Assembly: GCA_045601245.1 (NCBI GenBank) | Contig: JAZRZH010000052.1 | Span: forward strand, 48,975-112,974 | From: Bacteroidales bacterium | GTDB taxonomy: Bacteria; Bacteroidota; Bacteroidia; Bacteroidales; UBA932 | Direction: 5' to 3' | Length of the DNA stretch: 64,000 nt | The notes under the pieces: generated by a model | What the model saw: only the letters and a program-made list of their open reading frames with translations | Database searches by the model: none | Told to the model about the DNA's origin: nothing | Program-made: the position numbers and the translations under genes | In this document: positions 15,617-59,899 of the stretch, piece after piece | How positions within the stretch are numbered: position 1 is the first letter of the stretch | Layout of the letters: every line of letters starts with the position of its first letter

Positions 15617-15617
15617 A

Positions 15618-16580: not shown

Positions 16581-16583
16581 ACG

Positions 16584-30700: not shown

Positions 30701-32691
30701 TCTATGGCGTCCAACCTAGCCAGGACTGACTTATAGAGATTTCCCTTATCCTCCATATGAGTGCGGATTGAGCATACAAATTTATTGTTCTCGAAAGTTG
30801 TTCCCCTCGCCTGCTCAAAATCCTTCAGCTTGTCAGCCGCATCGCCATCAGCGCCGAAACCGGTCATAGCGCTGAGTGAAAATTCCTTGCTGGCGTCATC
30901 ATAATACATCTGGTCCATTGTCTGGACTGAATGGTTCCACTTGTTGATAATTGACATTATATCATCCTTTCCTGCTTCAGCCAGATCGATTCCGTAATAC
31001 TTACTGATAGCCTCATAAGCCCAGGCCCATTCAAACGTATAATAGTTATCATGAATCTTATGGAAACGGCTATTAACTTTATGATAATCAGAAACAAGCC
31101 CATTTTCAATATCATTAAGCAAATTATGGACTTCAGTTTTCGGAGCAATCATTCCTCCCACATCCACCCAGTCTCCGAGCCCGTCATCCGATTCAGGGCT
31201 CAGCGCTTTGCGCAGAGAATCGATATCAGTGAATTCCGAATTCTGTATTCTTGTAATAAGCGAATTGCCGAGGAATTTATTAATGGCCATATCATAATAG
31301 ACAAGACCTTTCTCCAAAGAAGTACGGCGTATTCTGCCGCTTTGGAATGTATATTCAGCCGATGTGCGCCCCGATACCCGTTGCATTTCCTTTAAAATAG
31401 CGATAGCGTTAAACATCTTCTGCACCGTATAAGGGCTTAACAGATTATAATTGATACAATCTAGCAGTTCCTCTTTATCAGTACGGGCATCCCGGTCAGG
31501 CCATTTACGGGCATCCCGGATTGTGCCGACACTGTGCAGATTGGCGCCAGGGACAATATATGTCGATGTGTTCTCCTCTATCAGGTATGAAAATGGCAGA
31601 TTGGACGTATCCTGATGGCTTACGTGACGGCCCATAACCAGGGAAAAAGCCCCCACCTTAGCAGGCCATAGCACATATGAATCAGAGGCCGTCTTTGCGC
31701 CTCGCTCCATAATACCCTGATGTACAGGGCCGAGCTTATAGAGATGATTGCTCTGATTAGAGCCGGATCCTGCATTCATAAATGAAAACATACCGGCTAT
31801 CAGCAGAGTGGATTTGTGATGTGTCACGGTATATGGTCCGGCGAATATTGCGCAAGCTTCTCCGTTTTCACCGAAACAGTTCGCAAAGAACAGGGAATCA
31901 GTTGCGGAATAAGTACGTCCCAGCTCACACGACTGCCCCACAAAGCAGCGCTGCAGTGTGACTCCGTCAGTCACCGATGTACCGCTGCATATAATGAAGT
32001 CATCGGCAATGACGCCATTACCGATATGGGACGGAGCCGAGGCATTGCAATTGACAGTCCCGTTCTTGAGCCTGCGTGCTCCCTCTATCCGACAACAATC
32101 TCCAATCCTCACATTCTTGATATAACCGGCATCCACAATTGTAACATTACTGCCGATAATACCTCTGGAAGATGTTACAGAATCCGCATAATCATTAATA
32201 ATGCGCTCAAGGGCTGCAACCGCTTCAGGCCGATAACGATAAAGAGCAAGGATATATGCCTGTTGTGCAGACAGCTTGTCATATATTGTAACTTCACGCC
32301 CGCCTGTTTCATTCAGGACACACACTTTCACTCCATTGCCGAAGGACGATTCGCCTTCAGTCAGGATTATGTCGACATTTTCAATAAAGGTATTGTCTCC
32401 TATATCGTAGTTGGCAATATAATTACCGATATTTTCTATCAGGCAGTTGTCACCAACAGCAGTATTGTGCAGCGTAGCCTTATACACGCCGCAACTCTTT
32501 GAAATTCCTCCTGATAACTGTATCTTGCCATCAAAGACACCCAGTCGGATATCACCGGACATTGTGACATTTCGGACGTGCTTTACAATAAACCCTTCCT
32601 TGACCAAGACACGGTCCCAGTCCTCAGCAACGCAGTTCTGCGACTTGAGAGACTCTATCTCATCAGAGGTAAGATGTCTGTATTCATTCAT
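30697..32691 (-). CDS. DUF4954-like left-handed beta-helix protein of unknown function
   Basis: The ORF-track start 32877 runs into galE. The ATG at 32691 gives [30 protein letters not shown]. Hexapeptide-like repeats ([30 protein letters not shown]) are followed by an ~300-aa helical C-terminal part. Confidence 0.6.
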
Positions 32692-32704
32692 GATAATTTC
32701 TTTT

Positions 32705-33733
32705 TCAAAGCGTCTGCTGCCACTTCCACGCTGACGCGAGGACATCTTCGACCGGGGTATCAGCACTCCACCCAAGGACTGTATTTGCCTTCGCAGGATT
32801 GGCCCACACCTGCTCAATGTCACCTTCGCGGCGCGGGCCGATACGGTAGTTGAGCTTGACACCGGTGGCACGCTCAAAGGCGTTCACCAACTCGAGCACG
32901 GAAAGTCCGCGACCGGTGCCGAGGTTGAATATCTCGAAGCGGCTGCGTTCCTCCTTTCCGGCGAAAAGCATACGGTCGATCGCCTTGACGTGAGCCTTTG
33001 CCAGATCGACGACATATATGTAGTCTCGGATGCAGGAGCCGTCAGGGGTATTGTAGTCGTTGCCGAAAACTGTCAGGCACTGACGGATGCCGGCAGCGGT
33101 CTGGGTGATGTACGGCACGAGATTCTGAGGGACTCCGTTAGGCAGTTCACCGATATGTGCTGACGGATGCGCTCCGATAGGGTTGAAATAGCGCAGTGCC
33201 GTGACAGCGAGTCCCGGATACGCGTGTACGCAGTCAGAGAGAATGTCCTCTGCCATCTGCTTCGTGCGGCCGTAAGGTGACGTGGCTGGTTGCAAGGGAG
33301 CATTCTCGGTAATCGGCAGATTCTCCTTAGTCGGCTGACCGTATACAGTGCAGGATGATGAGAATACGATATTTGCTGACTTGGCCTTCTCCACCATCAG
33401 TGTGATGAGATTTACCAAGCTCCGGATATTGTTATTGTAATACATCAGAGGCTTCTCTACGCTCTCCCCCACCGCCTTGCTGGCAGCGAAATGAATCGCA
33501 GCCTCGATGTCGGGATACTTCTCGAATACCTTTGCAAATGCATCATAATCCTTGCAGTCAACCTCCACGAAGTCAATTCTGCGACCCGTGATCTCCTCAA
33601 TGCCGTCCAGAACCTCTGGTCTTGAGTTTGAGAAATTGTCAACGCCAACGACATCATACCCTGAATTGATCAGTTCAACGGCCGTATGGGAGCCAATATA
33701 ACCGGTACATCCGGTAAGTAGTATTCTTGCCAT
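32705..33733 (-). CDS. galE: UDP-glucose 4-epimerase
   Basis: 342 aa: ILLTGCTGYIGSH (Rossmann), SSSCTVYG, YGRTK (YxxxK). Confidence 0.88.
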   Translation of the reverse strand: MARILLTGCTGYIGSHTAVELINSGYDVVGVDNFSNSRPEVLDGIEEITGRRIDFVEVDCKDYDAFAKVFEKYPDIEAAIHFAASKAVGESVEKPLMYYNNNIRSLVNLITLMVEKAKSANIVFSSSCTVYGQPTKENLPITENAPLQPATSPYGRTKQMAEDILSDCVHAYPGLAVTALRYFNPIGAHPSAHIGELPNGVPQNLVPYITQTAAGIRQCLTVFGNDYNTPDGSCIRDYIYVVDLAKAHVKAIDRMLFAGKEERSRFEIFNLGTGRGLSVLELVNAFERATGVKLNYRIGPRREGDIEQVWANPAKANTVLGWSADTPVEDVLASAWKWQQTL

Positions 33734-42327: not shown

Positions 42328-43137
42328 TCACTTATACCAGGCCTTGAATTTGTGATGTGAAACGCGTTTCTCAACAGGAGGCAGCTGCATGTAATCCCCG
42401 AATGCCGCTGTCAGGCATTCGTCGTATCCGGCGAAACACTTGAATGTGCGGTCCTCAAAAGGAATATCGATAATATCATCGAATAGTGATTTGCGGAAAG
42501 GATTGTTCGCGAAAAGTCCGAGTGAGCAATTATACACCATTCCTGAACCGCATCCGTCCCATTTCTTCGCCAATTTATCCATCTTTTCCGCCATAGTGCG
42601 TTTGCTCCACGGCAGAAGCGCAATTTTGACCGGAACCAGAAGGACCGTTTTCCACCACGCCCTGCTTTTGTCGAAGAGTATCCTGTCCTTCATCAGATAA
42701 AGATTGCAGAAAAAGATCCTGCGCCTGTTGTATCTGCGCCATAGCGCCTCATCCGCAGGCACGTCATCTATCGGGAAGATATCTATGTTCACGCCTGTCT
42801 CGACGGCATCCCGACGATTCTCCACCAGAACAGTACGATTATCGAAAAACTTGGCGAACATCCTGTCCCATTTCGGATTGGTTTCGAGCGACCCGACTTC
42901 GTAACGGCCTTCGTATGCCTTCGGGAATCCTTTGAGCAATCGGTCATAATCATCCCTGAGCATATAGATGTCAATGTCATCATCCCACGGAATGAACCCC
43001 TTGTGGCGGACCGCCCCGATAAGGGAGCCGCCGGCAAGGCTGTATATGAGAGCATTTTCCACGCAGTAACGCTGGAAAGCCTCCAATATGTCCATCTGGA
43101 GTTTCTTCAGCTCCTCAGTATCAATATCCTTCGCCAT
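42328..43137 (-). CDS. licD: LicD-family phosphotransferase (transfers phospho-alcohol head groups from CDP-activated donors)
   Basis: 269 aa. GGSLIGAVRHKGFIPWDDDIDIYM is the LicD nucleotidyltransferase-fold motif. Its ATG overlaps the upstream stop as TAATG. Confidence 0.75.
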   Translation of the reverse strand: MAKDIDTEELKKLQMDILEAFQRYCVENALIYSLAGGSLIGAVRHKGFIPWDDDIDIYMLRDDYDRLLKGFPKAYEGRYEVGSLETNPKWDRMFAKFFDNRTVLVENRRDAVETGVNIDIFPIDDVPADEALWRRYNRRRIFFCNLYLMKDRILFDKSRAWWKTVLLVPVKIALLPWSKRTMAEKMDKLAKKWDGCGSGMVYNCSLGLFANNPFRKSLFDDIIDIPFEDRTFKCFAGYDECLTAAFGDYMQLPPVEKRVSHHKFKAWYK

Positions 43138-45320
43138 TATCTGAATTTAAAAGAATTGAATAAAATGTTATTGTTATAATATTCATCACGGACTGTATTA
43201 TAGACTGATATTGATACGCTGTCATCTTCAGGTCCGGCATTGAGCATCATTATCCAGCCGTCACCGCCGTTAGGCATCATCTGGAGATTGAACTCTATGA
43301 CAGGAACAGTGCGTCCGTCACCGGTCCTCATTGCGACAAACTGGGCGAACGGATCCACGTGACCGCAGATAAGGCACAGGATATTATCATAGCAGGAAAC
43401 AAGGATATCCCAAAGCTCCTGTGGAGATGTAGCGGAAATGCCGGTCCCCGCGAAATGGCGGACCGAATATGGATTCTCCCTTAATAGCATTCCGTTGTGT
43501 CCCAGAAACTCGTGGGTGACGAGAATAAACTTCCGGTCGCTATGTTCATCAAGATATTTCCTGGCCCATTGAACGACCTCCGCCCTCGGTGCAAATTCCA
43601 ACATCATCACATCTATACGCTCCCCTGCGAAATAGTTGCGGAATACTGCATTCTCCAAGCGAAGCGGCTCATACTGGGCGACCACGTTCTTTATCGGCAA
43701 AGGAAAATCGAAATAATCCATTATGTAGGAACTGCGCCTGTCATAGATTTTGGAATCCGAGGCCCAGGTATAATCATGATTTCCAGTGCTGGTATAGAAT
43801 GGGATGCAGTCAGAAACAATGTCTGTGCATTTGCGGAAACGACGCCACTGATGCCCCAGATTGGTATTCGCTATATCACCGGTATGAATGATACAGGCAA
43901 TGTTGTTCTCAACCGCTTGCTTTGACTTCAACCATTCGAGCGAATTCACATAATACTCTGCACATCGATCATCCTCCGTATAAACCTGGATATCGCCAAA
44001 AACCGCTATGCAGGTATTGTTTGCCTTGAGGAAATCGTCATCCAGTTCATTTGCCACCGAATGATCAGGCAGACCCGTATCAGACGAGCCGCATGATGTG
44101 AGCGATACAGCAGCAAGCATAAGTGCTACAGCCAATGCCGGCGCATCAATCGAACGTGTGCGGTCCACAAATGACTGGAAGCGCTTCCACGGCCCCATCT
44201 TTTCGAGATGAGTGGCCTCTCCTACTCCTTTGACGAATCTGCTGACGCGTGTATCACGGCCGATCTGGCGTTTCAGGAAAGCCGCCATACCGAATGTCAT
44301 CAGCAATGACGCTCCTATGACGCAGTAAAGCTGAACGCCGACGGATGCGCCGAGTGTCCAGACAAGGACCCAGACTGCGACCACAAAGAGATTCATCACT
44401 ATCTCGGACATTGTCGTACCTATGTGGGAGAAGCCTAGTTCGATGAATATGTGGTGCATATGGTTCTTATCAGGATGAAACGGGGACTTTCCCCTGGAAA
44501 TCCTGTATATCATAACCCTGAGCGTATCAAAGACCGGAACGGCAAGCACCGCGAGTGAGAAAGCGATGACACTGAATCTGCTGGTGATGAGATTCTCATA
44601 ATCCACGCGGTATTTGCAGATCGCTATTACCATCGAAGCGAGAATTGTGCCGACCATCATAGTGCCACCGTCCCCAATGAACATCTTCGTTCCGTGACCG
44701 AATACATTGTGAACAAAGAACGGAATCAGTGCACCGACCGAAACAGCCGCAAGGGCGGCAAATGAATATTCGTGCTCACAGAAAAAAATGACGCCAAACA
44801 ATGTGAAGGCGACAATGCAGAAGCCAGAAACCATTCCGTCCACGCCATCGATCATATTGATGGCATTTATGATGCCGACCATAGCGATAATACTCAGCGG
44901 CACGGAGAATATCGTCGGAAGAAGGCCAATCCCCCAAAGCCCCTGAAAATTGCAAATTGAAAAATGGGTTCCGTAAATGAGCAGCATCATCACAATAACT
45001 TCAACTGCGAGTCTGAGATACGGAGACAGATTCAGAATATCATCTATCGTCCCAAGATACAGCATTACAATCATGGCAGTAAGCACGGCGAAAAGGCTCG
45101 TGAAACTCAGCATCGTCTTGAAGAAGCACAGCCCCACGACTATGCCGAAGAATACGGCGATACCGCCCAGCACCGGCACCGGCACGCGCTGGAGCTTTCG
45201 GGCGTCCGGGTTGTCAACGATGCCCTTCTCCCTGGCAATCTTGAGAATCGGCCAGTAGACGAAATAGGTCACAACGAGCGATATGACGAACAGCAGGAAT
45301 ATTCTATATTTCGGGGCCAT
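43137..45320 (-). CDS. In-frame fusion of a WecA/MraY-family polyprenyl-phosphate HexNAc-1-phosphate transferase and a calcineurin-like metallophosphoesterase, joined by a lipoprotein-signal-like segment
   Basis: 727-aa uninterrupted ORF. N-terminal motifs: GTIDDILNL, NAINMIDGVDG, FIGDGGTMMVG, KNHMHHIF (HIHH-like). From codon 375 (ATG 44198-44196): MGPWKRFQSFVDRTRSIDAPALAVALMLAAVSLTSCGSS (lipobox LTSC). Then IAVFGDIQ, HTGDIAN, GNHDY, LVTHEF, CGHVD. Confidence 0.75.
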   Translation of the reverse strand: MAPKYRIFLLFVISLVVTYFVYWPILKIAREKGIVDNPDARKLQRVPVPVLGGIAVFFGIVVGLCFFKTMLSFTSLFAVLTAMIVMLYLGTIDDILNLSPYLRLAVEVIVMMLLIYGTHFSICNFQGLWGIGLLPTIFSVPLSIIAMVGIINAINMIDGVDGMVSGFCIVAFTLFGVIFFCEHEYSFAALAAVSVGALIPFFVHNVFGHGTKMFIGDGGTMMVGTILASMVIAICKYRVDYENLITSRFSVIAFSLAVLAVPVFDTLRVMIYRISRGKSPFHPDKNHMHHIFIELGFSHIGTTMSEIVMNLFVVAVWVLVWTLGASVGVQLYCVIGASLLMTFGMAAFLKRQIGRDTRVSRFVKGVGEATHLEKMGPWKRFQSFVDRTRSIDAPALAVALMLAAVSLTSCGSSDTGLPDHSVANELDDDFLKANNTCIAVFGDIQVYTEDDRCAEYYVNSLEWLKSKQAVENNIACIIHTGDIANTNLGHQWRRFRKCTDIVSDCIPFYTSTGNHDYTWASDSKIYDRRSSYIMDYFDFPLPIKNVVAQYEPLRLENAVFRNYFAGERIDVMMLEFAPRAEVVQWARKYLDEHSDRKFILVTHEFLGHNGMLLRENPYSVRHFAGTGISATSPQELWDILVSCYDNILCLICGHVDPFAQFVAMRTGDGRTVPVIEFNLQMMPNGGDGWIMMLNAGPEDDSVSISVYNTVRDEYYNNNILFNSFKFR

Positions 45321-45332
45321 ATTGCAGAGTAT

Positions 45333-46469
45333 CTATCGGTTGTTGTACATTTCTTCGTAATACTTCAGATAATCTCCTGATGTCACGTTGTCCATCCATT
45401 CCTGATTGTCAAGATACCACCTGACCGTTTTCTCGATGCCCTCCTCGAACTGCAGGGAAGGCTCCCAGCCAAGCTCGCGCTGGAGTTTTGAAGAGTCTAT
45501 GGCATATCGCAAGTCATGACCGGCACGGTCGGTGACATATGTGATCAGGTCCAAATCGGCGCCTTCAGGTCTGCCGAGAAGCCGGTCGACGGTATTGATG
45601 AGGACCTTGATGATATCGATGTTCTTCCATTCGTTGAACCCGCCGATATTGTATGTCTCGGCTACCTTGCCATTGTGGAAGATGGTATCGATGGCGCGTG
45701 CGTGATCCTCGACGAAGAGCCAGTCTCGGACATTCTCGCCCTTCCCGTAGACGGGAAGCGGCTTACGATTGCGGATATTATTAATAAACAGAGGGATAAG
45801 CTTCTCCGGAAATTGATATGGGCCATAGTTGTTAGAGCAGTTGGTCACTATGGTCGGCATCCCGTAGGTATCGTGGAATGCTCTGACAAAATGGTCACTG
45901 CCGGCCTTGGCGGCGCTGTAAGGGCTGTGCGGCTGATATTTGAGGTCCTCGGTAAAGAATTTCTCACCGTATGCCAGATGATGCTTACCGCTCGATGCCT
46001 TGGTGGTGAACGGCGGTTCTATGCCAGCCGGATGGGTCATCTCAAGCGCACCGTACACCTCGTCCGTACTGATATGGTAGAAGAGCTTGCCGTCCCATTT
46101 TTCCGGAAGGCTCTCCCAATAGAGTTTCGCTGCCTGAAGAATCGAAAGCGTACCCATCACATTCGTCTTCGCAAAAGTGAAAGGATCCTTTATGCTGCGG
46201 TCCACGTGGCTTTCAGCGGCGAGATGGATGACACCGTCCACATTCCTGCCGCACATCAGTGCATAGATCGTATCGAAATCGCATATATCGGCTTTTACGA
46301 AGGAATAATTCGGTCTGTCCTCGATATCCCTGAGGTTGGCCAGGTTGCCGGCATATGTCAGTTTGTCGACATTGATGATGTCGTATTCCGGATATTTGTT
46401 GACGAACAGCCTTACTACGTGGGAGCCGATGAATCCCGCCCCACCGGTGATAATGATAGTGCGCTTCAT
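45333..46469 (-). CDS. rfbB: dTDP-glucose 4,6-dehydratase
   Basis: The ORF-track start 46484 is a TTG. The ATG at 46469 gives MKRTIIITGGAGFIGSH. Also STDEVYG and YSAAKAGSD (YxxxK). Confidence 0.88.
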   Translation of the reverse strand: MKRTIIITGGAGFIGSHVVRLFVNKYPEYDIINVDKLTYAGNLANLRDIEDRPNYSFVKADICDFDTIYALMCGRNVDGVIHLAAESHVDRSIKDPFTFAKTNVMGTLSILQAAKLYWESLPEKWDGKLFYHISTDEVYGALEMTHPAGIEPPFTTKASSGKHHLAYGEKFFTEDLKYQPHSPYSAAKAGSDHFVRAFHDTYGMPTIVTNCSNNYGPYQFPEKLIPLFINNIRNRKPLPVYGKGENVRDWLFVEDHARAIDTIFHNGKVAETYNIGGFNEWKNIDIIKVLINTVDRLLGRPEGADLDLITYVTDRAGHDLRYAIDSSKLQRELGWEPSLQFEEGIEKTVRWYLDNQEWMDNVTSGDYLKYYEEMYNNR

Positions 46470-46534
46470 ATAGTCAGTGTACAACTATTGCATATTATAT
46501 TATTTTACAAATATAACAATAGTTTACTGACTAT
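46470..46534. repeat. Imperfect inverted repeat (9 + 8 bp arms) directly abutting the rfbB start codon and enclosing a candidate -7 box
   Basis: ATAGTCAGT(gtac)AACTATTG at 46470-46490 pairs with CAATAGTT(t)ACTGACTAT at 46517-46534. The 26-nt AT-rich loop contains CAAATATA. Confidence 0.5.
46508..46515 (-). promoter_or_regulatory. Candidate -7 promoter box TATATTTG for rfbB
   Basis: Plus strand reads CAAATATA. It lies 38 nt upstream of the ATG at 46469, inside the loop of the inverted repeat. Confidence 0.4.
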
Positions 46535-46569
46535 CAAAAAGTAAGTGGACGGCCCTGACGGGCGGCGGC

Positions 46570-47610
46570 TCAGAGCTCCGAAATAGCGCGGATGAGTGCC
46601 GCGACAGCCTCATCCGTCGTCGCCCAGCTGGTGCAGAACCGGACTGCGGAAAGGCCGTCGCCCATATTCTGCCAATACTCGAAGCCAAACTTTTCTCCAA
46701 GTCTGTCAAGCGCAGCCTGCGTCAGTATCGGAAACTGCTGGTTGGTAGGACTCCTGACGAGCAACGGCACGCCGGCAGCCTTGAACGCCTCCCTGATCTT
46801 CAACGCCTTGGAAACGGCGGAAGATGAGAGCTTGAAGTACAAGTCGTCGGTGAAAAGCGTCTCGAACTGGATGCCGAGGAGCCTGCCCTTTGCGAGCATA
46901 CCGCCGTTCTGCTTTATGAAATATCGGAAATTCTTCCTGAGCGCGGGGTTGCAGATGACCAGGGCCTCCCCGAAAAGCGCGCCCTGTTTCGTGCCGCCGA
47001 TATAGAACACATCGGCAATGTCCGAAAGGTCCTCGATCTTGATATCACATTCCACGGATGAAAGGCCGTAACCCAGACGGGCGCCGTCGACGTAGAGCGG
47101 AGCCTCCCATTTGCGGCACACGTCGCGGATGGCCAGCAGTTCCGACTTCGTGTAGAGCATTCCCAGCTCTGTCGGAAGCGAAATATAAACCATCCCCGGT
47201 TGGACCATATGTTCGTGGTTGCAGTCATTGTAGTGATCATAGAAGCAGCGGTCGATCTGCTCCGCAGTAATCTTCGAGTCCACTGACGGCAATGCCAGCA
47301 CCTTGTGTCCTGAATGCTCTATGGCGCCGGTTTCGTGGACGTTCACGTGCCCGCAGTCGGCACATACGACGCCCTGATAAGGCTTGAGAACCGATGCTAT
47401 GACCGTGGCGTTGGTCTGCGTACCGCCAACCAGAAAATGGATGCCGGAAACGTCCACGCCGCATTTTGCCGATATCAGCCGGCGCGCGGAAGCACAGAAT
47501 TCATCCTCGCCATAACCCACGGTCTGGCACATATTTGTCTCTGCAAGGCGGTTCAGGATTGTGGGATGCGCCCCCTCGCCGTAATCGCACACGAAAAGCA
47601 TCTTATCCAT
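46570..47610 (-). CDS. Threonine-aldolase-family (beta-eliminating lyase fold) PLP-dependent enzyme
   Basis: 346 aa: FLVGGTQTNATVIA, YIGGTKQGALFGEA (PLP-lysine region), and an overall LtaE-like length and order. Confidence 0.7.
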   Translation of the reverse strand: MDKMLFVCDYGEGAHPTILNRLAETNMCQTVGYGEDEFCASARRLISAKCGVDVSGIHFLVGGTQTNATVIASVLKPYQGVVCADCGHVNVHETGAIEHSGHKVLALPSVDSKITAEQIDRCFYDHYNDCNHEHMVQPGMVYISLPTELGMLYTKSELLAIRDVCRKWEAPLYVDGARLGYGLSSVECDIKIEDLSDIADVFYIGGTKQGALFGEALVICNPALRKNFRYFIKQNGGMLAKGRLLGIQFETLFTDDLYFKLSSSAVSKALKIREAFKAAGVPLLVRSPTNQQFPILTQAALDRLGEKFGFEYWQNMGDGLSAVRFCTSWATTDEAVAALIRAISEL

Positions 47611-47622
47611 AATATCAATCTT

Positions 47623-48339
47623 TTACTCTATCCCGATATGGGATTCCGCATAAGCCAGATCGGCTTCATCATCTATCTCGTACCACTTGAGGGCGTCAAT
47701 CTTAAGCACATTCATAGGTTTTATGCGATTGCTGACGTCCAGCAGCATATATTCATAACCCAGCTTCGGCTTTTCATCCAGCACCCTCGAATACTCATCC
47801 ACGCAAATGCGATAGAACTCATTCGAAAGCCTGTGGATGCCGACCAGTTCACCGGAAGGTTCGAAAGCATTTTCATCGGTAGAGCAGTCCACCAGTTCGC
47901 ATCTGCCGTTCATCTTCACATAATACTGGTCCTGGAATTTCGTCACCGGAGAGATAAGCATCGCCGAATCGAAATCACATCCGAGAAGGCCCGATATCGC
48001 CTTGCGCTCAAAGACAAGGTCGCTCTCGAGAAGGAGGAAATCGTCATTTCCGACTGCCTCGCGGCAATTGTACAGCGTGTACATGCTGTTGGTCTCCGCA
48101 AAGCGAGGACTGTAGACACACTCTATCATCGGAAAGCGCTTCTGCAGAGCCTCATAGCTCTCCTTCCTCCACCCCGTCCCGATGATTATCCTTTCTATGC
48201 CGCAGTCAATCAGCGTCTCGATGCTGCGGACCACCATCGGCTTGTCCCTGAATTCGACGAATCCCTTAGGGATCATTTCGGTATGCTTCCCGAAACGCGA
48301 GCCGAGGCCGGCGGCCATTATCACTGCTGTCTTTATCAT
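47623..48339 (-). CDS. LicC-like nucleotidyltransferase (cytidylyltransferase-type NTP transferase)
   Basis: The ORF-track start 48345 is a TTG. The ATG at 48339 gives MIKTAVIMAAGLGSRFG, the NTP_transferase signature. About 238 aa. It starts 2 nt after the permease stop. Confidence 0.65.
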   Translation of the reverse strand: MIKTAVIMAAGLGSRFGKHTEMIPKGFVEFRDKPMVVRSIETLIDCGIERIIIGTGWRKESYEALQKRFPMIECVYSPRFAETNSMYTLYNCREAVGNDDFLLLESDLVFERKAISGLLGCDFDSAMLISPVTKFQDQYYVKMNGRCELVDCSTDENAFEPSGELVGIHRLSNEFYRICVDEYSRVLDEKPKLGYEYMLLDVSNRIKPMNVLKIDALKWYEIDDEADLAYAESHIGIE

Positions 48340-48341
48340 AA

Positions 48342-49811
48342 TCAATTATCAACGTTTCCCTTTACAAAATATTTATACTGCCTGATGAAGAAGCAGAGCC
48401 CCAGGAGGCACCAGATAGCGAACATAATATACGACTGCCTGCAGAAATGGACCCCTTCAAGACCTTCAATCGGAACAAGCTGCAGCTCGATAAAACCGAG
48501 TGACAGAATGCACCCGACCGCAGCCACAAGCTTGTGACGGAAAGTGCATTCAGGATCCCAGTTCATAGTCACGACGGTCGATGCGCAGGTGAAGAAAAAT
48601 CCGATGGAAGCACCTACCGCACTCATATCCACAAACCATCCCAGAGCCTCGCGTCCGAGAACCGGACCGCTGAGGGATACCAGTATGCAGAAGAGCATCG
48701 CATTGACAGGAGTGCCGTATTTCGGGCTTACCTTCGCGAATATCATCGGAAGATATCCATCCCTCGCCATAGCGTACATCAGACGGCTGGAGGCAAGGTA
48801 GAAGCCCATGATACCGGATAGTACCGCGCAGGAAACAGCAACTCCGAGCAGTACCTTGCCGAAAGTGCCGAGCATCTCTTCGGCGGCGACCATAAGCACC
48901 CAGTCCCCCGACATCACACGGTCCGGCCAATTTGCCACAGCAACGGCCGCGACGGTATTGTTGGCGATATACACAAAAGTACCGAATATGATGGCGACGC
49001 CCATTATCAGCATCACTTTCTTATGCGGGAACTTGAACTCCTCCGCTGCCTGCGGAATAGTCTCAAACCCTACGAAAGCCCAAGGTGCGATGGCAAGAGT
49101 GGCCATTATCGCGGAGAGGACACCCTTCGGACCGGACTTGGCGAATTCGGCCAGGCCACTGCCGGAAGCGCCGGCGCCAAGCGCGGCCTGCCTGTCGAAG
49201 CCCCACGGCATCTGAACGTTGCTCCAGTCCGCCTTCGTGCTGACCAACGCGGATACCGTCAGTATGAAAACCGACAGCGCAAGCATAGATGTCAGTACTG
49301 TCTGTATGAATCCCGCCTTGCGGACCCCGATGATGTTGAGCCAGCCGAAAACGACCAGCACCGCGGAGGCGAAGAACACCTCACCGGCCCATACGTCAAA
49401 TCCCGCAACGGTATAATGGAAGCCCCATTTGAGGATATCGGCGCTGCCGTCAAGGCCGTCGACTATCAGACCTATGGCTGTCGAATTCATAGGGACGTTC
49501 GTCAGATATGCGGCGACGAGAAACCATCCGCACACATAGGCGAAGGTCCTGCCGAAACATTTTTTGGTATAATTGAATTCGCCCCCGGCGGTCGGATTCC
49601 TCGGCACCATATAGGCGTATGCATAGGCGATGACAAACATTATCAGCGCGCCGGCGACCATGGCGATGGCCGTACCGCAGACTCCGGAATTGGGAAGGAA
49701 CTTCTTGCCGGGATTGACGAATGCGCCCCAGCCGATTATGCAGCCGAAGGCGAGCGCCCAGACGTGTGTGGGCGACAATTGTTTCCTGAGTTCCGGTTTA
49801 TCCTTTCCCAT
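48342..49811 (-). CDS. APC-superfamily amino acid / amine permease
   Basis: 489 aa with about 12 TM segments and an N-terminal LSPTHVWALAFGCIIGWGAFVNPG, typical of APC permeases. Confidence 0.7.
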   Translation of the reverse strand: MGKDKPELRKQLSPTHVWALAFGCIIGWGAFVNPGKKFLPNSGVCGTAIAMVAGALIMFVIAYAYAYMVPRNPTAGGEFNYTKKCFGRTFAYVCGWFLVAAYLTNVPMNSTAIGLIVDGLDGSADILKWGFHYTVAGFDVWAGEVFFASAVLVVFGWLNIIGVRKAGFIQTVLTSMLALSVFILTVSALVSTKADWSNVQMPWGFDRQAALGAGASGSGLAEFAKSGPKGVLSAIMATLAIAPWAFVGFETIPQAAEEFKFPHKKVMLIMGVAIIFGTFVYIANNTVAAVAVANWPDRVMSGDWVLMVAAEEMLGTFGKVLLGVAVSCAVLSGIMGFYLASSRLMYAMARDGYLPMIFAKVSPKYGTPVNAMLFCILVSLSGPVLGREALGWFVDMSAVGASIGFFFTCASTVVTMNWDPECTFRHKLVAAVGCILSLGFIELQLVPIEGLEGVHFCRQSYIMFAIWCLLGLCFFIRQYKYFVKGNVDN

Positions 49812-49818
49812 AGCTATA

Positions 49819-50763
49819 TTATACCCAGAGACGCCGGGTCTCCTTTTCTATCTCCACTTCGGGCGCGGTAGATATCAAATCGTATATCTTTGATGCAAAA
49901 ACGGCATCGTGCAGGCCAAGGCCCACATTATAACTGATTATCCGCTGCCCGTCGTCAGTCCTGCCCTCAGCCCTGCCCTCAATGACATCCTGTATTTCAG
50001 CGAAATACTTATACTGGCTGAAATACTTGAAGCCCTGGATATGAGCCGTATCATCACCGAATATCCTGTCAAAAACCAAATCGCAGTTCTGGAATCCTCT
50101 GGTATGGACAGGAATAAGCGTGACGCCCGGTCTGAAGCAGTTGTCATCCTCACAAAGCAGTCCGTCAGCCTGAGTTATGCAACTGTATATGACATCAGAA
50201 AGGGAGAACATTTCCGGTATTGAATCGAATACCGTGAATCTGACATTCGAATAATCCTTGAAACGCCCGATGAAAAGATCGGCTTCGTTCCTGAATCTAT
50301 ACAGGAAAACATTATGCATTGTATCAGGCTCGGATTCGAGCAGGCACAGCATAGTGGCAATGGCCACGTTTCCAAGCCCGACAAAGCAATAATTGATCTC
50401 TCCGCTTCTGCGGAATGTCTGCGCAGCCAGAGTAGCCACGGCACCGGTCCTCATAGCCGTGATCCAATCGCAGTCCATAAGGGCCAGAAGTGTCCCCGTA
50501 GAGGCTTCGTATACCTGGATATTGCTGCTCAGCGCCGGTGTGGCGTTCTGAAGCCGGCTCACAAGCTTGAGACAATAGCGGTTATAGGATTCGGGGAGCA
50601 GACACGGCATAGCCGTATAAAAATCCACACCGTCGGGATGTACACTGACCTTTGGCGGGAGCTGGGAGAATCGCTTCAACGAGAAACTCTCCTTGACCCA
50701 ATCGAGACATGTAGCCGGAGAAATCCGCAGGCCCGCTATGGTGGATTTGCTTATTATTTTCAT
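49819..50763 (-). CDS. Ornithine cyclodeaminase / mu-crystallin family NAD(P)-dependent enzyme
   Basis: 314 aa: ITAMRTGAVATLAAQ followed by the Rossmann motif CFVGLGNVA, as in the OCD/mu-crystallin family. Confidence 0.65.
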   Translation of the reverse strand: MKIISKSTIAGLRISPATCLDWVKESFSLKRFSQLPPKVSVHPDGVDFYTAMPCLLPESYNRYCLKLVSRLQNATPALSSNIQVYEASTGTLLALMDCDWITAMRTGAVATLAAQTFRRSGEINYCFVGLGNVAIATMLCLLESEPDTMHNVFLYRFRNEADLFIGRFKDYSNVRFTVFDSIPEMFSLSDVIYSCITQADGLLCEDDNCFRPGVTLIPVHTRGFQNCDLVFDRIFGDDTAHIQGFKYFSQYKYFAEIQDVIEGRAEGRTDDGQRIISYNVGLGLHDAVFASKIYDLISTAPEVEIEKETRRLWV

Positions 50764-50767
50764 ATAT

Positions 50768-51883
50768 CTACTTGATCACCACCCTGTTGATGCGGCGGCT
50801 CATTCGTGTCATAAGTTCATATGGGATAGTCCCGAGGATATCCGAGAGTTCCTCAAGACGCGGGCTGTCGCCGAATATCGTGACGACATCCCCCACCTTG
50901 GCATCCACGCCCGTGACATCGATCATGCAGGCATCCATACAGATATTGCCGATGGTCGGTACAAGACGGCCGTTTACCGAGAAATGCGCCCCACCGTTGC
51001 TGAAGCGGCGGTCAATGCCGTCGGCATAGCCGAGTGAGATGGTGGCGGTCGTGGTCGGACCGTTTATCTTTCCCTTGCGGGAATATCCCACAGTACCGTC
51101 CGCGACATCCAGATGCTTCACCTGAACCACCTTGGTCTTGAGGGATGCAACCGGCTTCACATCTTCGTCAGCCAAGGTGCGATAACCGTACAGGCCGATT
51201 CCGAGACGGACCATATCATACTGATACTGAGGATATTTTTCAGCAAACCGCTCAATACCTGCGGTATTGCAAAGGTGACGCATCGGAGTATATCCCAGGA
51301 AATCCGATATCTTGCCGGAAATACGGTCGAAGGTCCGGGCCTGCCCCAGCGTGAATTCATCGAAGCACTCCTCGTCCGCGCCTGCAAGGTGCGAATATAT
51401 CGACTTGACTTTCAGAGTCTGATCATTTGCGAAGAACTCTTTCAGTTCATCGAGTTCGCCATCCATAAAGCCGACGCGGTGCATGCCGGAATCGACCTTT
51501 ATATGGACAGGATAGTCCTTGAGTCCGCGCAGTGCCACATATCCGCTGAAGAGCTTCAGGGAGAACATATCGGTCATACCCGGCTCGAGATTGTATCCCA
51601 CGATATCCTCCAGCGCCTCACGGCTCCAGTTGAGGACAAGTATCGGCAGGCCTATTCCCGCGCGGCGGAGTTCGACGCCCTCATTCACAAATGCAACCCC
51701 GATATAATCCACGCCCATATGCTCTATCGAATGGGCCACCTCCACGGCACCCATACCGTATGCATTGGCCTTGAGCAGCACAAGCATCTTTGTGGAGTCC
51801 TTCAGCCTGGACTTGAAATGATTTATATTATAACGGAGATTATCCTCATCTATCTCCAGCCTTGGATAATTTGTAACATTCAT
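50768..51883 (-). CDS. alr: Alanine racemase (stand-alone)
   Basis: 371 aa: VLLKANAYGMGAVEVA (PLP-lysine motif KANAYGxG), with a C-terminal beta domain LVPTIGNICMDACMIDVT. Confidence 0.85.
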   Translation of the reverse strand: MNVTNYPRLEIDEDNLRYNINHFKSRLKDSTKMLVLLKANAYGMGAVEVAHSIEHMGVDYIGVAFVNEGVELRRAGIGLPILVLNWSREALEDIVGYNLEPGMTDMFSLKLFSGYVALRGLKDYPVHIKVDSGMHRVGFMDGELDELKEFFANDQTLKVKSIYSHLAGADEECFDEFTLGQARTFDRISGKISDFLGYTPMRHLCNTAGIERFAEKYPQYQYDMVRLGIGLYGYRTLADEDVKPVASLKTKVVQVKHLDVADGTVGYSRKGKINGPTTTATISLGYADGIDRRFSNGGAHFSVNGRLVPTIGNICMDACMIDVTGVDAKVGDVVTIFGDSPRLEELSDILGTIPYELMTRMSRRINRVVIK

Positions 51884-51903
51884 AATTTCGTTGTTTGGGG
51901 CTG

Positions 51904-51911
51904 CAAAGATA
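51904..51911 (-). promoter_or_regulatory. Candidate -7 promoter box TATCTTTG for the alr-led cassette
   Basis: Plus strand reads CAAAGATA. It lies 21 nt upstream of the alr ATG at 51883, in the 35-nt gap after the capD-like gene. Confidence 0.4.
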
Positions 51912-51918
51912 GCAAAAA

Positions 51919-53871
51919 CTACTGCGGCAAGTCAAGGACTTCGTATACGGAATTCTTGCTCCTGTACTCAGGCACAGCCTTTTTCATCAACTTGACCATA
52001 TCCATAATATCTACCTTTATGGCCAGATCTGCCAGCTGATCAATGATTCCGCATATCTCGGAATAGTCATAAGGACGGACTTGTGCAACCCTTATGCGGT
52101 CGTGAGATGTCGAAGTTGTCCCCTCCAGGTCAGCAAGCACCTCTTCATAAAGCTTCTCACCAGGACGGAGTCCGGTATATTCGACCATAATGTCCACATC
52201 CGGCACAAAGCCGGAGAGTTCTATCATCCTTCTGGCAAGCGTATCTATCTTCACTGATTTGCCCATATCGAACACGAATATGTCGTTCCCGGCAGACATT
52301 GTCGCAGCTTCAAGGACCAGTCTGCACGCCTCCGGAATTGTCATAAAGAAGCGAGTGATATCAGGATGTGTGACTGTAACCGGGCCGCCCGCAGCGATCT
52401 GATCACGGAAACGCGGTATTACTGAGCCATTTGAGCCAAGGACATTTCCGAAACGAGTCGTAACGAACTTTGTTTTGCCCACAACCGCCCCATCGGCCAT
52501 AGCTGTGCCGAGACTCTGCACATAGATTTCAGCCAATCTTTTCGAGCATCCCATCACATTCGTAGGATTCACAGCCTTGTCCGTTGAAATCATCACCATC
52601 TTCTCAACTCCATACTCAACACATTTCTCCGCAACCATCCTGGAACCAAACACATTCACCAGAACAGCCTCGCACGGATTCTCCTCCATTAACGGCACGT
52701 GCTTGTATGCTGCTGCGTGGAACACGACCTGAGGTTTGTATTTCCGGAATGCAAAATCAAGTCTTTCCTTATGGCGGACATCCCCGATAACAGGTACGAA
52801 ATTGAATTTGGGAAATGACTCCTCGAGACTGAGACGCAGATTATGCATCGGGGTTTCGGCATTGTCGTACAAAATCAGTTTACTGACTCCGAACTTCGCC
52901 AACTGGCGGCACAGTTCGGATCCGATACTTCCGGCAGCACCGGTGACCATCACTGTCTTGCCGGCAAAGTTTTCTATGATTTTATCCATAGAAATCTTGA
53001 TTTCCTCCCTTCCCAGAAGGTCCTCCACCCTGACTTCCCTGATGCGGGAAGTGAACTCATGACCCGAAGCATCCTCCAGAGATGGCACGACAAGCACCTT
53101 CATATTCTTCTGAAGAGCAAATTTGACACATCTGTCATGTTCATCGCGGACATCATTATCGTCAGCGAAGAGAATTGCATCAATGGCCAGTTTGTCGACA
53201 ATCCGTGAAAATGACTCTTTGTCGGAGAAATAATATGTCACATTGTTAGCAATGCGGAGATTGTCTTCGTCCTTTGACGCTGTCAGAAATCCACAGACCT
53301 TATATTTCTGTGATTTCTGCAATCTTGTCAAAAGGGAGACAGCCTTGTTAAGGGTCCCGAAAACCAGAACTTTGGTCAATTTCTTGTCCTTGCGTGACTG
53401 ATTGAGGAAATGATAATAAACGGTTATCATCAGTATCCTGACCAGAATAAGGAAGAAGAATGATAGCAGAAAATCAGCTAAAAGTATGGCAATCGTGGAA
53501 TAACGCCACAGTGAAACGCTTATCAGAGTGATTGAAATCAATATCTCTTTCCCAGCAAGTGCCAGCGCCAGTTTCATTACATCGTGGAAAGACGAATATC
53601 TGATAATGATATGGTGACTCTTGACCAGAAGAAACATCAGCGCCGAATAAATCAGCGATGTGACAAGGATGAGATTGTAATAGCTGCCCGAAGACTTACA
53701 GTATATTTCCCGAATCTGCGGTATCATCAGAAAAACAAGAATGATAGCCGTGGAAACGAAGGATATGAACGTATCCAAAAGTAAAACGACTCTTTTATCA
53801 AGATGCTTGGCTATGAGGCGTTTTATGCGCACATACAAAGCAGATAACACTTTTTGGTCCTTTAATCCCAT
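51919..53871 (-). CDS. CapD/WbpM/PglF-type membrane-anchored NDP-sugar 4,6-dehydratase (polysaccharide biosynthesis protein)
   Basis: The ORF-track start 53892 is a TTG. The ATG at 53871 gives MGLKDQKVLS. Four N-terminal TM segments, then VMVTGAAGSIGSEL (Rossmann), and GCSKRLAE in the Yxx(x)K position (Met replaces Tyr in NVMGCSKR, as in many CapD-like enzymes). Confidence 0.75.
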   Translation of the reverse strand: MGLKDQKVLSALYVRIKRLIAKHLDKRVVLLLDTFISFVSTAIILVFLMIPQIREIYCKSSGSYYNLILVTSLIYSALMFLLVKSHHIIIRYSSFHDVMKLALALAGKEILISITLISVSLWRYSTIAILLADFLLSFFFLILVRILMITVYYHFLNQSRKDKKLTKVLVFGTLNKAVSLLTRLQKSQKYKVCGFLTASKDEDNLRIANNVTYYFSDKESFSRIVDKLAIDAILFADDNDVRDEHDRCVKFALQKNMKVLVVPSLEDASGHEFTSRIREVRVEDLLGREEIKISMDKIIENFAGKTVMVTGAAGSIGSELCRQLAKFGVSKLILYDNAETPMHNLRLSLEESFPKFNFVPVIGDVRHKERLDFAFRKYKPQVVFHAAAYKHVPLMEENPCEAVLVNVFGSRMVAEKCVEYGVEKMVMISTDKAVNPTNVMGCSKRLAEIYVQSLGTAMADGAVVGKTKFVTTRFGNVLGSNGSVIPRFRDQIAAGGPVTVTHPDITRFFMTIPEACRLVLEAATMSAGNDIFVFDMGKSVKIDTLARRMIELSGFVPDVDIMVEYTGLRPGEKLYEEVLADLEGTTSTSHDRIRVAQVRPYDYSEICGIIDQLADLAIKVDIMDMVKLMKKAVPEYRSKNSVYEVLDLPQ

Positions 53872-53889
53872 ATAATGAATTTTAACTTT

Positions 53890-53897
53890 CAAATTTA
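53890..53897 (-). promoter_or_regulatory. Candidate -7 promoter box TAAATTTG for the capD-like gene
   Basis: Plus strand reads CAAATTTA. It lies 19 nt upstream of the ATG at 53871. Confidence 0.4.
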
Positions 53898-59042: not shown

Positions 59043-59783
59043 TCAACAGCCCCTGCCATACATCCGCCATACACCTGCCCGCCTATGTCTCACCGATACC
59101 GAGGCAACGTGATTGCCGCCAGAGCGGCGGCTCCTGATATCACGACGGATTGACGTTGGGAATGTCATAACTGATAATAACATGGCAAAAGTTGCGAGTC
59201 GTGACATCAAATTGGTAAATATGAGTGGTTTCCCTGTCACGAGCAGCAAATATCAACTAAAACTGTCGATTCGTGACAAAAGCCATCCCGCGGAGTTTGC
59301 GAGATGGCTTTGCGAAAATTATTATCGATTGGCTCCGCCGATGGCTGACGCACAGATTGCAACTGGCCCACTTGACGGACAGGCCGAGATCCACCGATGT
59401 GATATCCTTTGTCTTGAAAGACTTGACATTCCCATATTGGTACAAGCACGATGCATACCTTATGTATGCTTTATAGCAATATTCGGTATCCGAAGAGAGG
59501 GCTTTGAGGACAACCTCAAATTTTATTTGAATCCAGTTCAATACTCGCCTCTAAAATTCCGTTTTCGTTTGAGGGGTCAGGCTCGTGGAAAACAGAATGC
59601 CGAATCGGCATGCAGAACGAATGGATTCGCCCACGTTCAGATAACCATAGAGTATTACATAGTTTTCAGAAACCTAGGCAGAACCAGCTGTAACAACCTC
59701 GCCGGAAGATGCCGGCCAGTCAATCTGACAAGAAGGGAAAATTGCAGCCACTAATATAGAACGATAACTAGCGACCTTTTCAT
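59043..59783 (-). pseudogene. Decayed surface-lipoprotein gene (several frameshifts and in-frame stops)
   Basis: Hand translation from the ATG at 59783 gives MKRSLVIVLY*, then after a 1-nt frame slip LVAAIFPSCQIDWP (lipobox FPSC). Downstream fragments in other frames: ...RFGILFSTSLTPQT, LKALSSDTEYCYKAYIRYASCLYQYGNVKSFKT (FN3-like strand pattern) and VDLGLSVKWASCNL (a motif I recall from many Bacteroidales surface lipoproteins). No frame stays open. The region is more AT-rich than its flanks. The 3' limit is uncertain. Confidence 0.55.
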
Positions 59784-59804
59784 CTTTTTATCCAGTTACT
59801 CAAG

Positions 59805-59812
59805 CAAATGTA
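59805..59812 (-). promoter_or_regulatory. Candidate -7 promoter box TACATTTG retained upstream of the pseudogene
   Basis: Plus strand reads CAAATGTA. It lies 21 nt upstream of the ATG at 59783. Confidence 0.4.
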
Positions 59813-59899
59813 CGAATTATCCAATAATCATTACGTAAGCGAAAATATTATTCAGGAATAAACGTATCATAAGAAGTCCGGCAGGCGACGATGCCGAGC

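Follow-up and report, generated by a model that had tools for sequence, protein, structure and literature searches.

What brings five tightly packed genes, for an alanine racemase (alr), an OCD/mu-crystallin-like enzyme, an APC-superfamily permease, a nucleotidyltransferase (NTase) and a threonine-aldolase-type PLP enzyme (TA), together between two sugar 4,6-dehydratases? A sequence-only reading of the window, by which we mean the whole 64-kb stretch of DNA analysed here, part of a 123-kb contig, took them for one operon, which may take up an amino acid, racemise it and attach it to a glycan, possibly by opine-like reductive condensation with an NDP-4-keto-6-deoxyhexose. Its gene-level description was borne out: ORF reading, profile searches and the sequence itself agree on the five minus-strand genes, their families and the spacers of 4, 7, 2 and 12 nt between them, as well as on the -7 box before alr and on the flanking CapD and rfbB genes. 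Pfam scans of all large ORFs and tblastn likewise detected no RmlA/C/D or DegT in the window, and no PEP mutase or kinase. The relevant features, all on the minus strand, are the following:

51919..53892, minus strand: CapD/WbpM-type membrane 4,6-dehydratase (Pfam Polysacc_synt_2, 5e-116); present in the related locus L097, not in L096
51904..51911, minus strand: TATCTTTG, Bacteroidetes-type -7 promoter-like motif, 20 nt before the alr ATG
50768..51883, minus strand: alr, alanine racemase (TIGR00492); backbone gene
49819..50763, minus strand: OCD/mu-crystallin-family NAD(P) enzyme (Pfam PF02423, 77 bits)
48342..49811, minus strand: APC-superfamily permease (AA_permease_2, 138 bits), candidate importer of 2-aminoethylphosphonate (AEP)
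47623..48345 (probable ATG at 48339), minus strand: NTase, PntC-type (LicC-like) cytidylyltransferase (NTP_transf_3, 50 bits), candidate CMP-AEP synthase
47611..50767, minus strand: three-gene indel OCD-APC-NTase, 3.16 kb, from the alr stop to the aldolase start (blastn against L096 and L097)
46570..47610, minus strand: threonine-aldolase-type (low-specificity) PLP enzyme, TA (Beta_elim_lyase, 67 bits; PDB 1svv)
46508..46515, minus strand: TATATTTG, second TAnnTTTG promoter-like motif, in a 100-nt AT-rich spacer before rfbB
45333..46469, minus strand: rfbB, dTDP-glucose 4,6-dehydratase (TIGR01181, 447 bits against a cut-off of 365)
43137..45320, minus strand: WecA-like polyprenyl-phosphate sugar-1-P transferase with a fused Metallophos phosphoesterase domain (Pfam Glycos_transf_4 and Metallophos)
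42328..43137, minus strand: LicD-family phosphotransferase (Pfam LicD, 2e-46, 159 bits against a cut-off of 22.6), candidate AEP transferase from CMP-AEP to the glycan

The LicD gene (42328-43137), which lies three genes downstream of the five-gene block in the same glycan locus, and the second TAnnTTTG motif (46508-46515) had gone unmentioned in the sequence-only reading. The motif is over-represented in the window: it occurs 36 times, whereas shuffled sequence gives 20 +/- 5 matches.

The five-gene block is a composite, and neither an evolutionary nor a functional unit. In the related loci L096 and L097, alr and TA stand in the same CapD/rfbB/WecA-Metallophos/LicD setting (CapD being absent from L096), and in blastn of these loci against the window the alignment breaks off at 50775/50757 and resumes at 47604/47607; because alr and TA lie only 2 nt apart in both, the OCD, permease and NTase genes are recognised as a 3.16-kb indel. 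The alr gene is 91% identical to its counterparts in the two loci, where it directly abuts the aldolase gene, and the TA orthologues that follow it are 90% (L097) and 77% (L096) identical. L097 has the order CapD-alr-TA-rfbB, and its ORF upstream of alr aligns to window positions 52268-51919, within CapD. L096, which lacks both OCD-APC-NTase and CapD, otherwise matches the window in gene order from tRNA_SAD through Wzx, except that GT1 and Wzx have changed places and that there is a further small indel; its WecA-Metallophos orthologue is 64% identical, and its TA-rfbB junction measures 6 nt compared with 100 nt in the window. The inserted genes have a GC3 of 0.58-0.67, which does not differ notably from that of the neighbouring genes. 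A neighbourhood search found no repeat of the five-gene order in 80 loci around the NTase, 10 around the APC permease, 7 contexts of OCD and 4 of TA/alr, which leaves a single five-gene unit unsupported. Same-strand orientation and tight spacing had made two backbone genes and a three-gene insert resemble a single-purpose operon, which is a caution for annotation.

The alr and TA genes themselves are conserved syntenic backbone genes, and probably housekeeping ones. The racemase scores 269 bits against TIGR00492 (cut-off 168) and has both Ala_racemase_N and Ala_racemase_C, and TA matches the L. major threonine aldolase (PDB 1svv) at 7e-84; homologues of TA at about 64% identity are very common among Bacteroidales proteins, and those few whose source gives a name are annotated as low-specificity L-threonine aldolase. 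The pair resembles LtaE and a housekeeping alanine racemase both in these strong sequence matches and in its syntenic retention in relatives, and differs from them in being embedded in a glycan operon. In L014 and L015 a different gene, encoding an OMP-like protein (X210), occupies the alr/TA junction with no glycan gene between the two. The fallback explanation of the sequence-only reading, an unrelated amino-acid operon, suits alr and the aldolase and fails for the three inserted genes.

For these three genes, a first indication of function comes from the NTase. Its best solved relative is the N-domain of Tde1415 PntC (PDB 6pd1, 4.7e-37, residues 3-234), and its identity to T. denticola PntC is about 45%, while the match to LicC (1jyk) is weaker (1.4e-15, 98 residues). 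In the 240-aa ORF, E107 and E198 align with E104 and E196 of Tde-PntC, two glutamates that contact the AEP amine and are replaced by Asp in LicC (PMC6697681); all 41 relatives that are 45% or more identical have Glu/Glu at these positions. We regard the NTase as PntC-type, with a preference for AEP predicted from the two residues and from gene context.

That context is provided by the Pnt pathway, which consists of Ppm-Ppd-AEPT, the cytidylyltransferase PntC and a LicD-like transferase and leads to phosphonoglycans of the B. fragilis polysaccharide B type; PntC was defined operationally by its location near ppm, and about a third of PntC-type genes lie more than five genes away from it (Rice et al., 2019, PMC6697681). 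Relatives of the window NTase are embedded in Ppm-Ppd-AEPT operons: within the limits set by contig ends, Ppm (recognised by its EDKxxxxxNS motif), Ppd and AEPT are encoded beside the NTase in all 37 permease-less loci where it is 49-77% identical, and LicD or Glyphos_transf accompanies most PntC loci. The window itself carries LicD in the same glycan locus, but no Ppm, Ppd or AEPT within its 64 kb. In addition to lacking these genes, it departs from the Pnt pathway in the APC permease coupled to PntC and in the attached OCD/mu-crystallin enzyme.

Close homologues of the NTase are named 'phosphocholine cytidylyltransferase family protein' in their sources, PntC enzymes also take phosphocholine weakly, and LicD is classically a phosphocholine transferase. 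The NTase might accordingly act as a classical LicC on phosphocholine or phosphoethanolamine, with the permease, which matches the ethanolamine permease model TIGR00908 weakly (68 bits), importing choline or ethanolamine, and with a kinase encoded elsewhere. We consider this improbable, as neither the locus nor the window holds a LicA-type kinase, the Glu/Glu pair and the 45% identity point to PntC over the much weaker LicC match, and the 37 permease-less relatives without exception adjoin ppm.

The permease is a specific partner of PntC and AEP operons. Its seven nearest homologues, 70-81% identical, all lie beside PntC or inside Ppm-Ppd-AEPT operons: those of 77-81% identity inside the AEP operons L098-L100, and those of 70-71% directly before PntC in L016-L019. 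Three loci, namely the window, L018 and L019, have no de novo AEP genes, and all three have the permease, while no permease-less locus lacks these genes; the hypergeometric probability of this association is about 0.005 by our own arithmetic. In L018 and L019, a DUF2490 protein with a signal peptide is encoded between permease and NTase, which suggests uptake across both membranes; X210 of L014 and L015 was tested as a relative of this protein and proved unrelated. A search of solved structures with the permease returned generic APC/LAT/CAT matches only. The literature on PntC and phosphonate branch points that we covered describes neither a permease nor salvage, its lone mention of a transporter being PhnCDE in another context, and we know of no APC-family AEP transporter.

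Together with LicD, these two inserted genes would form a phosphonate head-group module, and we hold it somewhat probable that AEP is imported, activated to CMP-AEP and transferred to the surface polysaccharide. The host is probably an uncultured Bacteroidales lineage of ruminant-gut type, in which OCD-APC-NTase would have been inserted between alr and TA at the 5' edge of a Wzy-type polysaccharide locus. The permease would take up exogenous AEP, the PntC-type enzyme would convert AEP and CTP to CMP-AEP, and LicD may then place the AEP group on the glycan. The sequence-only reading came close here in naming the transfer of a nucleotide-activated derivative as one option, to which the PntC-type NTase, the LicD gene and the importer-like permease now give substance. 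Most related loci come from ruminant-gut MAGs, and AEP was first isolated from rumen protozoa.

Such a route is proposed as the phosphonate counterpart of Lic choline salvage (LicB, LicA, LicC and LicD of S. pneumoniae and H. influenzae), with which it would share the import of a ready head group, activation by CTP and transfer by LicD. The differences are that the permease belongs to the APC superfamily and not to LicB/DMT, that a kinase is missing, that the NTase bears the PntC and not the LicC signature, and that the proposed substrate is a phosphonate. The window contains neither of the head-group sources of the Lic and Pnt systems, a LicA kinase or Ppm-Ppd-AEPT, and the permease is proposed to stand in for them; since AEP already carries phosphorus, a LicA-type kinase would be unnecessary. 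LicD need not draw its donor from the insert, however, as L096 retains LicD although it has no NTase at this position.

In five of the eight permease loci (L016, L017 and L098-L100), however, the permease coexists with a complete de novo AEP pathway, and it could therefore carry another substrate, such as L-alanine as amino donor, or export a product. The search covered 64 kb of the 123-kb contig, and ppm-ppd-aept could lie elsewhere in the genome. If AEP is made there, the insert would add just a PntC copy and a supply of L-alanine. The OCD-like enzyme would then be an alanine dehydrogenase of archaeal type (AlaDH; pyruvate + NH3 + NAD(P)H to L-Ala), and alanine or another amino donor for the AEP transaminase and the neighbouring racemase would enter through the permease. 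This alternative, possible if on the unlikely side, draws on the same full-pathway loci, but the permease stays with the NTase where AEPT is missing (window, L018 and L019), and a dedicated alanine source for a minor glycan substituent answers no obvious need.

The OCD-like gene, which AEP salvage leaves unexplained, bears on this alternative as well. The protein belongs to its family (PF02423, 77 bits against a cut-off of 24), and its AF2 model (pLDDT 88) superposes by Foldseek on CRYM, SbnB, AlaDH and OCD with TM-scores of 0.75-0.85. It has this fold, a Rossmann domain and the Lys and Arg that bind the carboxylate in common with SbnB/CmnK, the A. fulgidus AlaDH and the Pyr2C/ketimine reductases, but is only 15-22% identical to any characterised member and has no SbnA-type partner. 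Assignment to a subfamily failed by HMM profile against PDB and by AF2 with Foldseek alike, since the protein is equidistant from all characterised members (CRYM, Pyr2C reductase, AlaDH and SbnB) and scores below every NCBIfam subfamily cut-off: 60 bits for SbnB (TIGR03944, cut-off 327), 50 for AlaDH (TIGR02371, 409), 57 for Pyr2C/Pip2C reductase (322) and 23 for OCD (350).

By gene context, the enzyme is an optional but recurrent accessory of PntC/LicC head-group modules that also occurs outside glycan loci, a setting undescribed for the OCD/mu-crystallin family; the literature on OCD with LicD, AEP, O-antigen or capsule yielded nothing relevant. In five independent arrangements (L004, L011, L030, L065 and L108), its gene comes immediately after AEPT or an NTase of PntC/LicC type. 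It stands directly after AEPT in L011-13, and also follows NTase/Ser-P-decarboxylase-like fusions. Two copies, 79% and 65% identical, lie away from any NTase or glycan gene, and the gene occurs in only 1 of 39 GTDB PntC loci, so that it is dispensable.

Two reactions are candidates. An L-alanine supply of the AlaDH type would suit the copies in non-glycan contexts, which suggest a general metabolic reaction, as well as the position after AEPT in L011-13 and after alr in the window, since both of these enzymes use L-alanine; the family profile also aligns full-length to the A. fulgidus AlaDH (4.8e-18), with the carboxylate-binding Lys66 and Arg105 conserved. The low TIGR02371 score speaks against it, as do the NTase/Ser-P-decarboxylase-like fusions, which need no amino donor. 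Alternatively, the enzyme may N-alkylate the aminoethyl head group reductively to an opine-like N-(1-carboxyalkyl)aminoethyl-phosph(on)ate, to be CMP/CDP-activated and transferred by LicD. The five arrangements have 2-aminoethyl-phosph(on)ate as their common product, and SbnB is the best single-sequence PDB match, the best NCBIfam match and the top TM-score (0.85). N-(1-carboxyethyl)ethanolamine phosphate is reported from a Proteus O antigen, a precedent for which our literature search retrieved neither paper nor gene cluster. We regard such tailoring as doubtful, given the copies away from NTase and glycan genes, the rarity in PntC loci, the TIGR03944 score and a literature search that found no support.

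The opine-like condensation of a racemised amino acid with a 4-keto sugar fares worse. The tight spacing with the promoter-like motif before alr, the two flanking 4,6-dehydratases and the lack of a recognised aminotransferase or ketoreductase in the window were in its favour. Nothing, however, joins the OCD-like enzyme to NDP-4-keto sugars, as its recurrent neighbours are PntC/LicC-type NTases and AEP genes and not dehydratases; moreover, NTase and permease are components of AEP/PntC modules, L096 and L097 have alr directly next to TA with none of the other three genes, and LicD offers a complete alternative route. Comparative genomics argues strongly against this coupling, which we regard as highly improbable and have rejected; most likely, the locus holds a variant of a known pathway and not a new opine-type sugar chemistry.

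Until now, phosphonates on surface glycans have been linked with PEP mutase, and surveys use the number of ppm genes to count phosphonate producers. If AEP salvage is correct, a ppm-less route of permease, PntC and LicD means that such surveys undercount phosphonate producers, and scavenging of AEP across kingdoms, for instance protozoal AEP on a bacterial capsule, can shape the surface chemistry of gut and rumen. The permease is a concrete candidate for a new AEP transporter family. A broader scenario is quite doubtful as a whole: rumen or gut Bacteroidales unable to form a C-P bond at this locus would scavenge the AEP of others, such as rumen protozoa, through a new APC-family transporter, joined in some relatives by a DUF2490 protein in the outer membrane, and would expose it on the capsule by means of PntC and LicD; in some strains the OCD-like enzyme would also make an opine-like N-carboxyalkyl head group. 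If true, such a head group would add a new class to the glycan substituents, and its synthesis a new activity to the OCD/mu-crystallin family. The analysis in any case flags an uncharacterised OCD/mu-crystallin clade that repeatedly accompanies aminoethyl-phosph(on)ate modules. At one stand-alone OCD gene (L001), the neighbouring M20 gene product is 41% identical to the M20 of the arg operon in the window, a weak hint of a link to ornithine.

The five minus-strand genes that the sequence-only reading took for one amino-acid cassette are present as it described:

50768-51883, minus strand: alr (TIGR00492, 269 bits against a cut-off of 168)
49819-50763, minus strand: OCD/mu-crystallin-family enzyme, hereafter OCD (PF02423, 77 bits)
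48342-49811, minus strand: APC permease (AA_permease_2, 138 bits)
47623-48345, minus strand: MobA/LicC-like nucleotidyltransferase, hereafter NTase, likely starting at the ATG at 48339 to give 238 aa
46570-47610, minus strand: threonine-aldolase-type PLP enzyme, hereafter aldolase (Beta_elim_lyase, 67 bits; PDB 1svv, 7e-84)

The spacers between them, taken straight from the sequence, measure 4, 7, 2 and 12 nt, and the -7-like motif TATCTTTG is located 20 nt 5' of the alr ATG; TAnnTTTG is over-represented in the window (36 matches versus 20 +/- 5 in shuffles). The flanking genes are indeed CapD (5e-116) and rfbB (TIGR01181, 447 bits against 365). Pfam scans covering practically all large ORFs, together with tblastn searches using reference proteins, detected no RmlA, RmlC, RmlD or DegT-type aminotransferase in the window, as had been claimed, and likewise no PEP mutase or kinase. 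Overlooked by that reading was a LicD phosphotransferase gene three genes downstream (42328-43137; Pfam, 2e-46), which belongs to a Wzy/Wzx-type locus bounded by CapD at 53.9 kb and an NTP_transf_5 gene at 33.7 kb.

Comparison with relatives separates the five genes into a backbone pair and an insert. Two related loci, L096 and L097, were reached through exact-cluster look-ups. L097 has the order CapD-alr-aldolase-rfbB, with alr and aldolase 91% and 90% identical to those of the window and only 2 nt apart. L096, from a Bacteroidales MAG (GCA_024398365.1), shares the gene order of the window across a tRNA_SAD gene, ffh, alr, aldolase, rfbB, a WecA-Metallophos fusion, LicD and Wzx, apart from a swapped GT1/Wzx order after LicD and one other small indel; it lacks both CapD and OCD-APC-NTase. 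In blastn against the window, the alignments of both loci skip from ~50775 to ~47604. In the more distant relatives L014 and L015, an unrelated signal-peptide protein, rather than any glycan gene, separates alr from the aldolase that comes after it, and in L014 rfbB lies further downstream. Because alr and aldolase adjoin in the close relatives, the alignments skip the intervening segment and another gene occupies the site in the distant ones, OCD-APC-NTase (47611-50767) is a 3.16-kb indel at a variable alr/aldolase junction, and alr and aldolase are backbone genes. Bacteroidales proteins include very many aldolase homologues at ~64% identity; where the source gives a name, as it does for a few, that name is low-specificity L-threonine aldolase.

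The main proposal for these genes, a five-gene unit coupling an amino acid to a 4-keto sugar, is not supported by these comparisons: the five-gene order was not repeated in any locus retrieved by any search, and none of the evidence gathered links the OCD-like enzyme to NDP-4-keto sugars. The fallback, unrelated amino-acid genes lying inside the locus, suits the backbone pair alr and aldolase and fails for the insert.

The loci differ elsewhere too. CapD (51919-53892) is itself an indel: the window and L097 have it and L096 lacks it. Only in part of the lineage have alr and aldolase become enclosed by glycan genes to either side. A segment at 59044-59896 is missing from the otherwise collinear L096; it holds a plus-strand ORF (59113-59754, 213 aa) with no Pfam match. 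In the window, a 100-nt AT-rich spacer (46470-46569) separates the aldolase stop from the rfbB ATG, with the -7-like motif TATATTTG at 46508-46515 and the region's best sigma-70-like match. In L096 just 6 nt separate the two genes, in contrast to the motif-bearing spacer of the window, so this spacer may hold a separate promoter for rfbB and the genes downstream of it.

The best solved relative of the NTase is the PntC domain of Treponema denticola Tde1415 (6pd1, 4.7e-37, ~45% identity), with Streptococcus pneumoniae LicC far behind (1.4e-15). In Tde-PntC, Glu104 and Glu196 touch the amine of 2-aminoethylphosphonate (AEP), where LicC has Asp (Rice et al., PMC6697681). The window NTase has Glu at both positions, as do 41 of 41 relatives at 45% identity or more. 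When one genome per GTDB species was scanned, 39 loci had an NTase 49-77% identical; within the limits set by contig ends, all 37 APC-less NTase loci adjoin the de novo AEP genes, namely PEP mutase (Ppm, with the EDKxxxxxNS motif), phosphonopyruvate decarboxylase (Ppd) and AEP transaminase (AEPT), and most also have a LicD or Glyphos_transf gene. By homology, signature residues and gene context, the NTase belongs to the PntC-type CMP-AEP synthase family. The suggestion of a nucleotide-activated derivative holds up in part, for the PntC-type NTase and LicD.

The permease has phosphonate associations as well. Homologues at 77-81% identity lie inside three AEP operons, ordered Ppd-APC-NTase-AEPT (L098), Ppd-APC-AEPT-NTase (L099) and LicD-Ppm-Ppd-APC-AEPT-NTase (L100), and homologues at 70-71% identity immediately precede PntC in L016-L019. 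As all its nearest homologues are in or beside phosphonate modules, the permease is a specific, though uncommon, component of phosphonate head-group modules. It occurs together with the full de novo pathway in five of eight permease loci. De novo AEP genes are missing altogether from just three PntC loci (the window, L018 and L019), each of which has the permease; no APC-less locus lacks them. By a hand calculation, C(8,3)/C(43,3), the chance of such an overlap is about 0.005.

Taken in this context, exogenous AEP would be imported by the APC permease, activated with CTP to CMP-AEP by the PntC-type enzyme, as homology, the two signature residues and gene context suggest, and placed on the glycan by LicD, a step to which co-location and the LicD/PntC association in relatives point. 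A phosphonate already carries its phosphorus and needs no kinase, which explains the absence of one. The chief reservation about this route is that a ppm gene may lie elsewhere in the genome, as the search covered the 64-kb window; the co-occurrence of the permease with full de novo pathways is another. The related loci are mostly from ruminant-gut MAGs, and rumen protozoa were the first source from which AEP was isolated (Horiguchi & Kandatsu 1959, cited in PMC10590968). In how it works the window system resembles the Pnt pathway described by Rice et al., and in its logic Lic choline salvage; it differs in having no C-P-forming genes, in pairing an APC permease with PntC and in carrying an OCD-like accessory. 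The phosphonate papers checked mention neither a permease nor salvage, and their sole transporter is PhnCDE, in another context.

Between APC and PntC, a signal-peptide DUF2490 protein is encoded in L018 (5379-6005) and L019 (9301-9921), exactly the two relatives without Ppm-Ppd-AEPT. A possible role for it is that of uptake partner in the outer membrane, consistent with uptake across both membranes. The 727-aa fusion of a WecA-like GT4 initiating transferase and a calcineurin-like Metallophos domain (43137-45320, minus strand) is kept beside LicD in L096 (13312-15468), and in L007 (1158-2189) OCD is followed by a Metallophos gene that stands alone; the fusion might hydrolyse a CMP/CDP donor or edit a phosphodiester.

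The OCD-like enzyme has more than 3000 homologues, with copies directly after a PntC/LicC-type NTase or AEPT in several independent arrangements: NTase then OCD, each 79% identical (L108), Ppm-Ppd-AEPT-NTase-OCD-LicD (L030), AEPT-OCD (L011-13), and an NTase fused to a serine-phosphate-decarboxylase-like domain, then OCD, in L004 (Alistipes) and L065 (Tannerellaceae). Non-glycan settings also occur, with a 79%-identical copy after a lactonase (L109/L110) and a 65%-identical stand-alone copy beside an M20 deacylase (L001-3). Its score is far below every NCBIfam subfamily cut-off, a family profile matches Pyr2C reductase (1.6e-24), SbnB (3e-21) and archaeal AlaDH (5e-18) about equally, and Foldseek places its AF2 model (pLDDT 88) equally far from every characterised member (15-22% identity, TM 0.75-0.85); the carboxylate-binding Lys and Arg are kept. 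These results leave two candidate reactions: AlaDH-type alanine supply for AEPT and alr, which fits the non-glycan copies, and reductive N-carboxyalkylation of the aminoethyl head group, which fits NTase adjacency.

A Gfo/Idh/MocA oxidoreductase gene lies upstream of APC-PntC in four loci (L016-L019) and its homologue follows OCD in L008 (10865-12013), beside a GHMP kinase and an NTP transferase, so that OCD, the oxidoreductase, APC and PntC form a linked neighbourhood network. Fusions of a LicC-like NTase to a serine/threonine-phosphate-decarboxylase-like domain (best PDB match 6oux, 3.6e-44; L004 8187-9998, L065 9995-11824, L060-L073, L079) are widespread in Alistipes, Tannerellaceae and Prevotella, some followed by an OCD-like gene, and probably make CDP-ethanolamine-type donors. 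Just beyond the glycan locus, the window encodes a 726-aa DUF4954 + DUF6819 protein (30697-32877, minus strand; 3e-220). Its arginine-biosynthesis operon (10394-17792, minus strand) comprises argG, argC, a class-III aminotransferase, an OTCase-like gene, an amino-acid kinase, an M20 deacylase and an argH-like lyase; this M20 is 41% identical to the one adjoining the stand-alone OCD homologue in L001.
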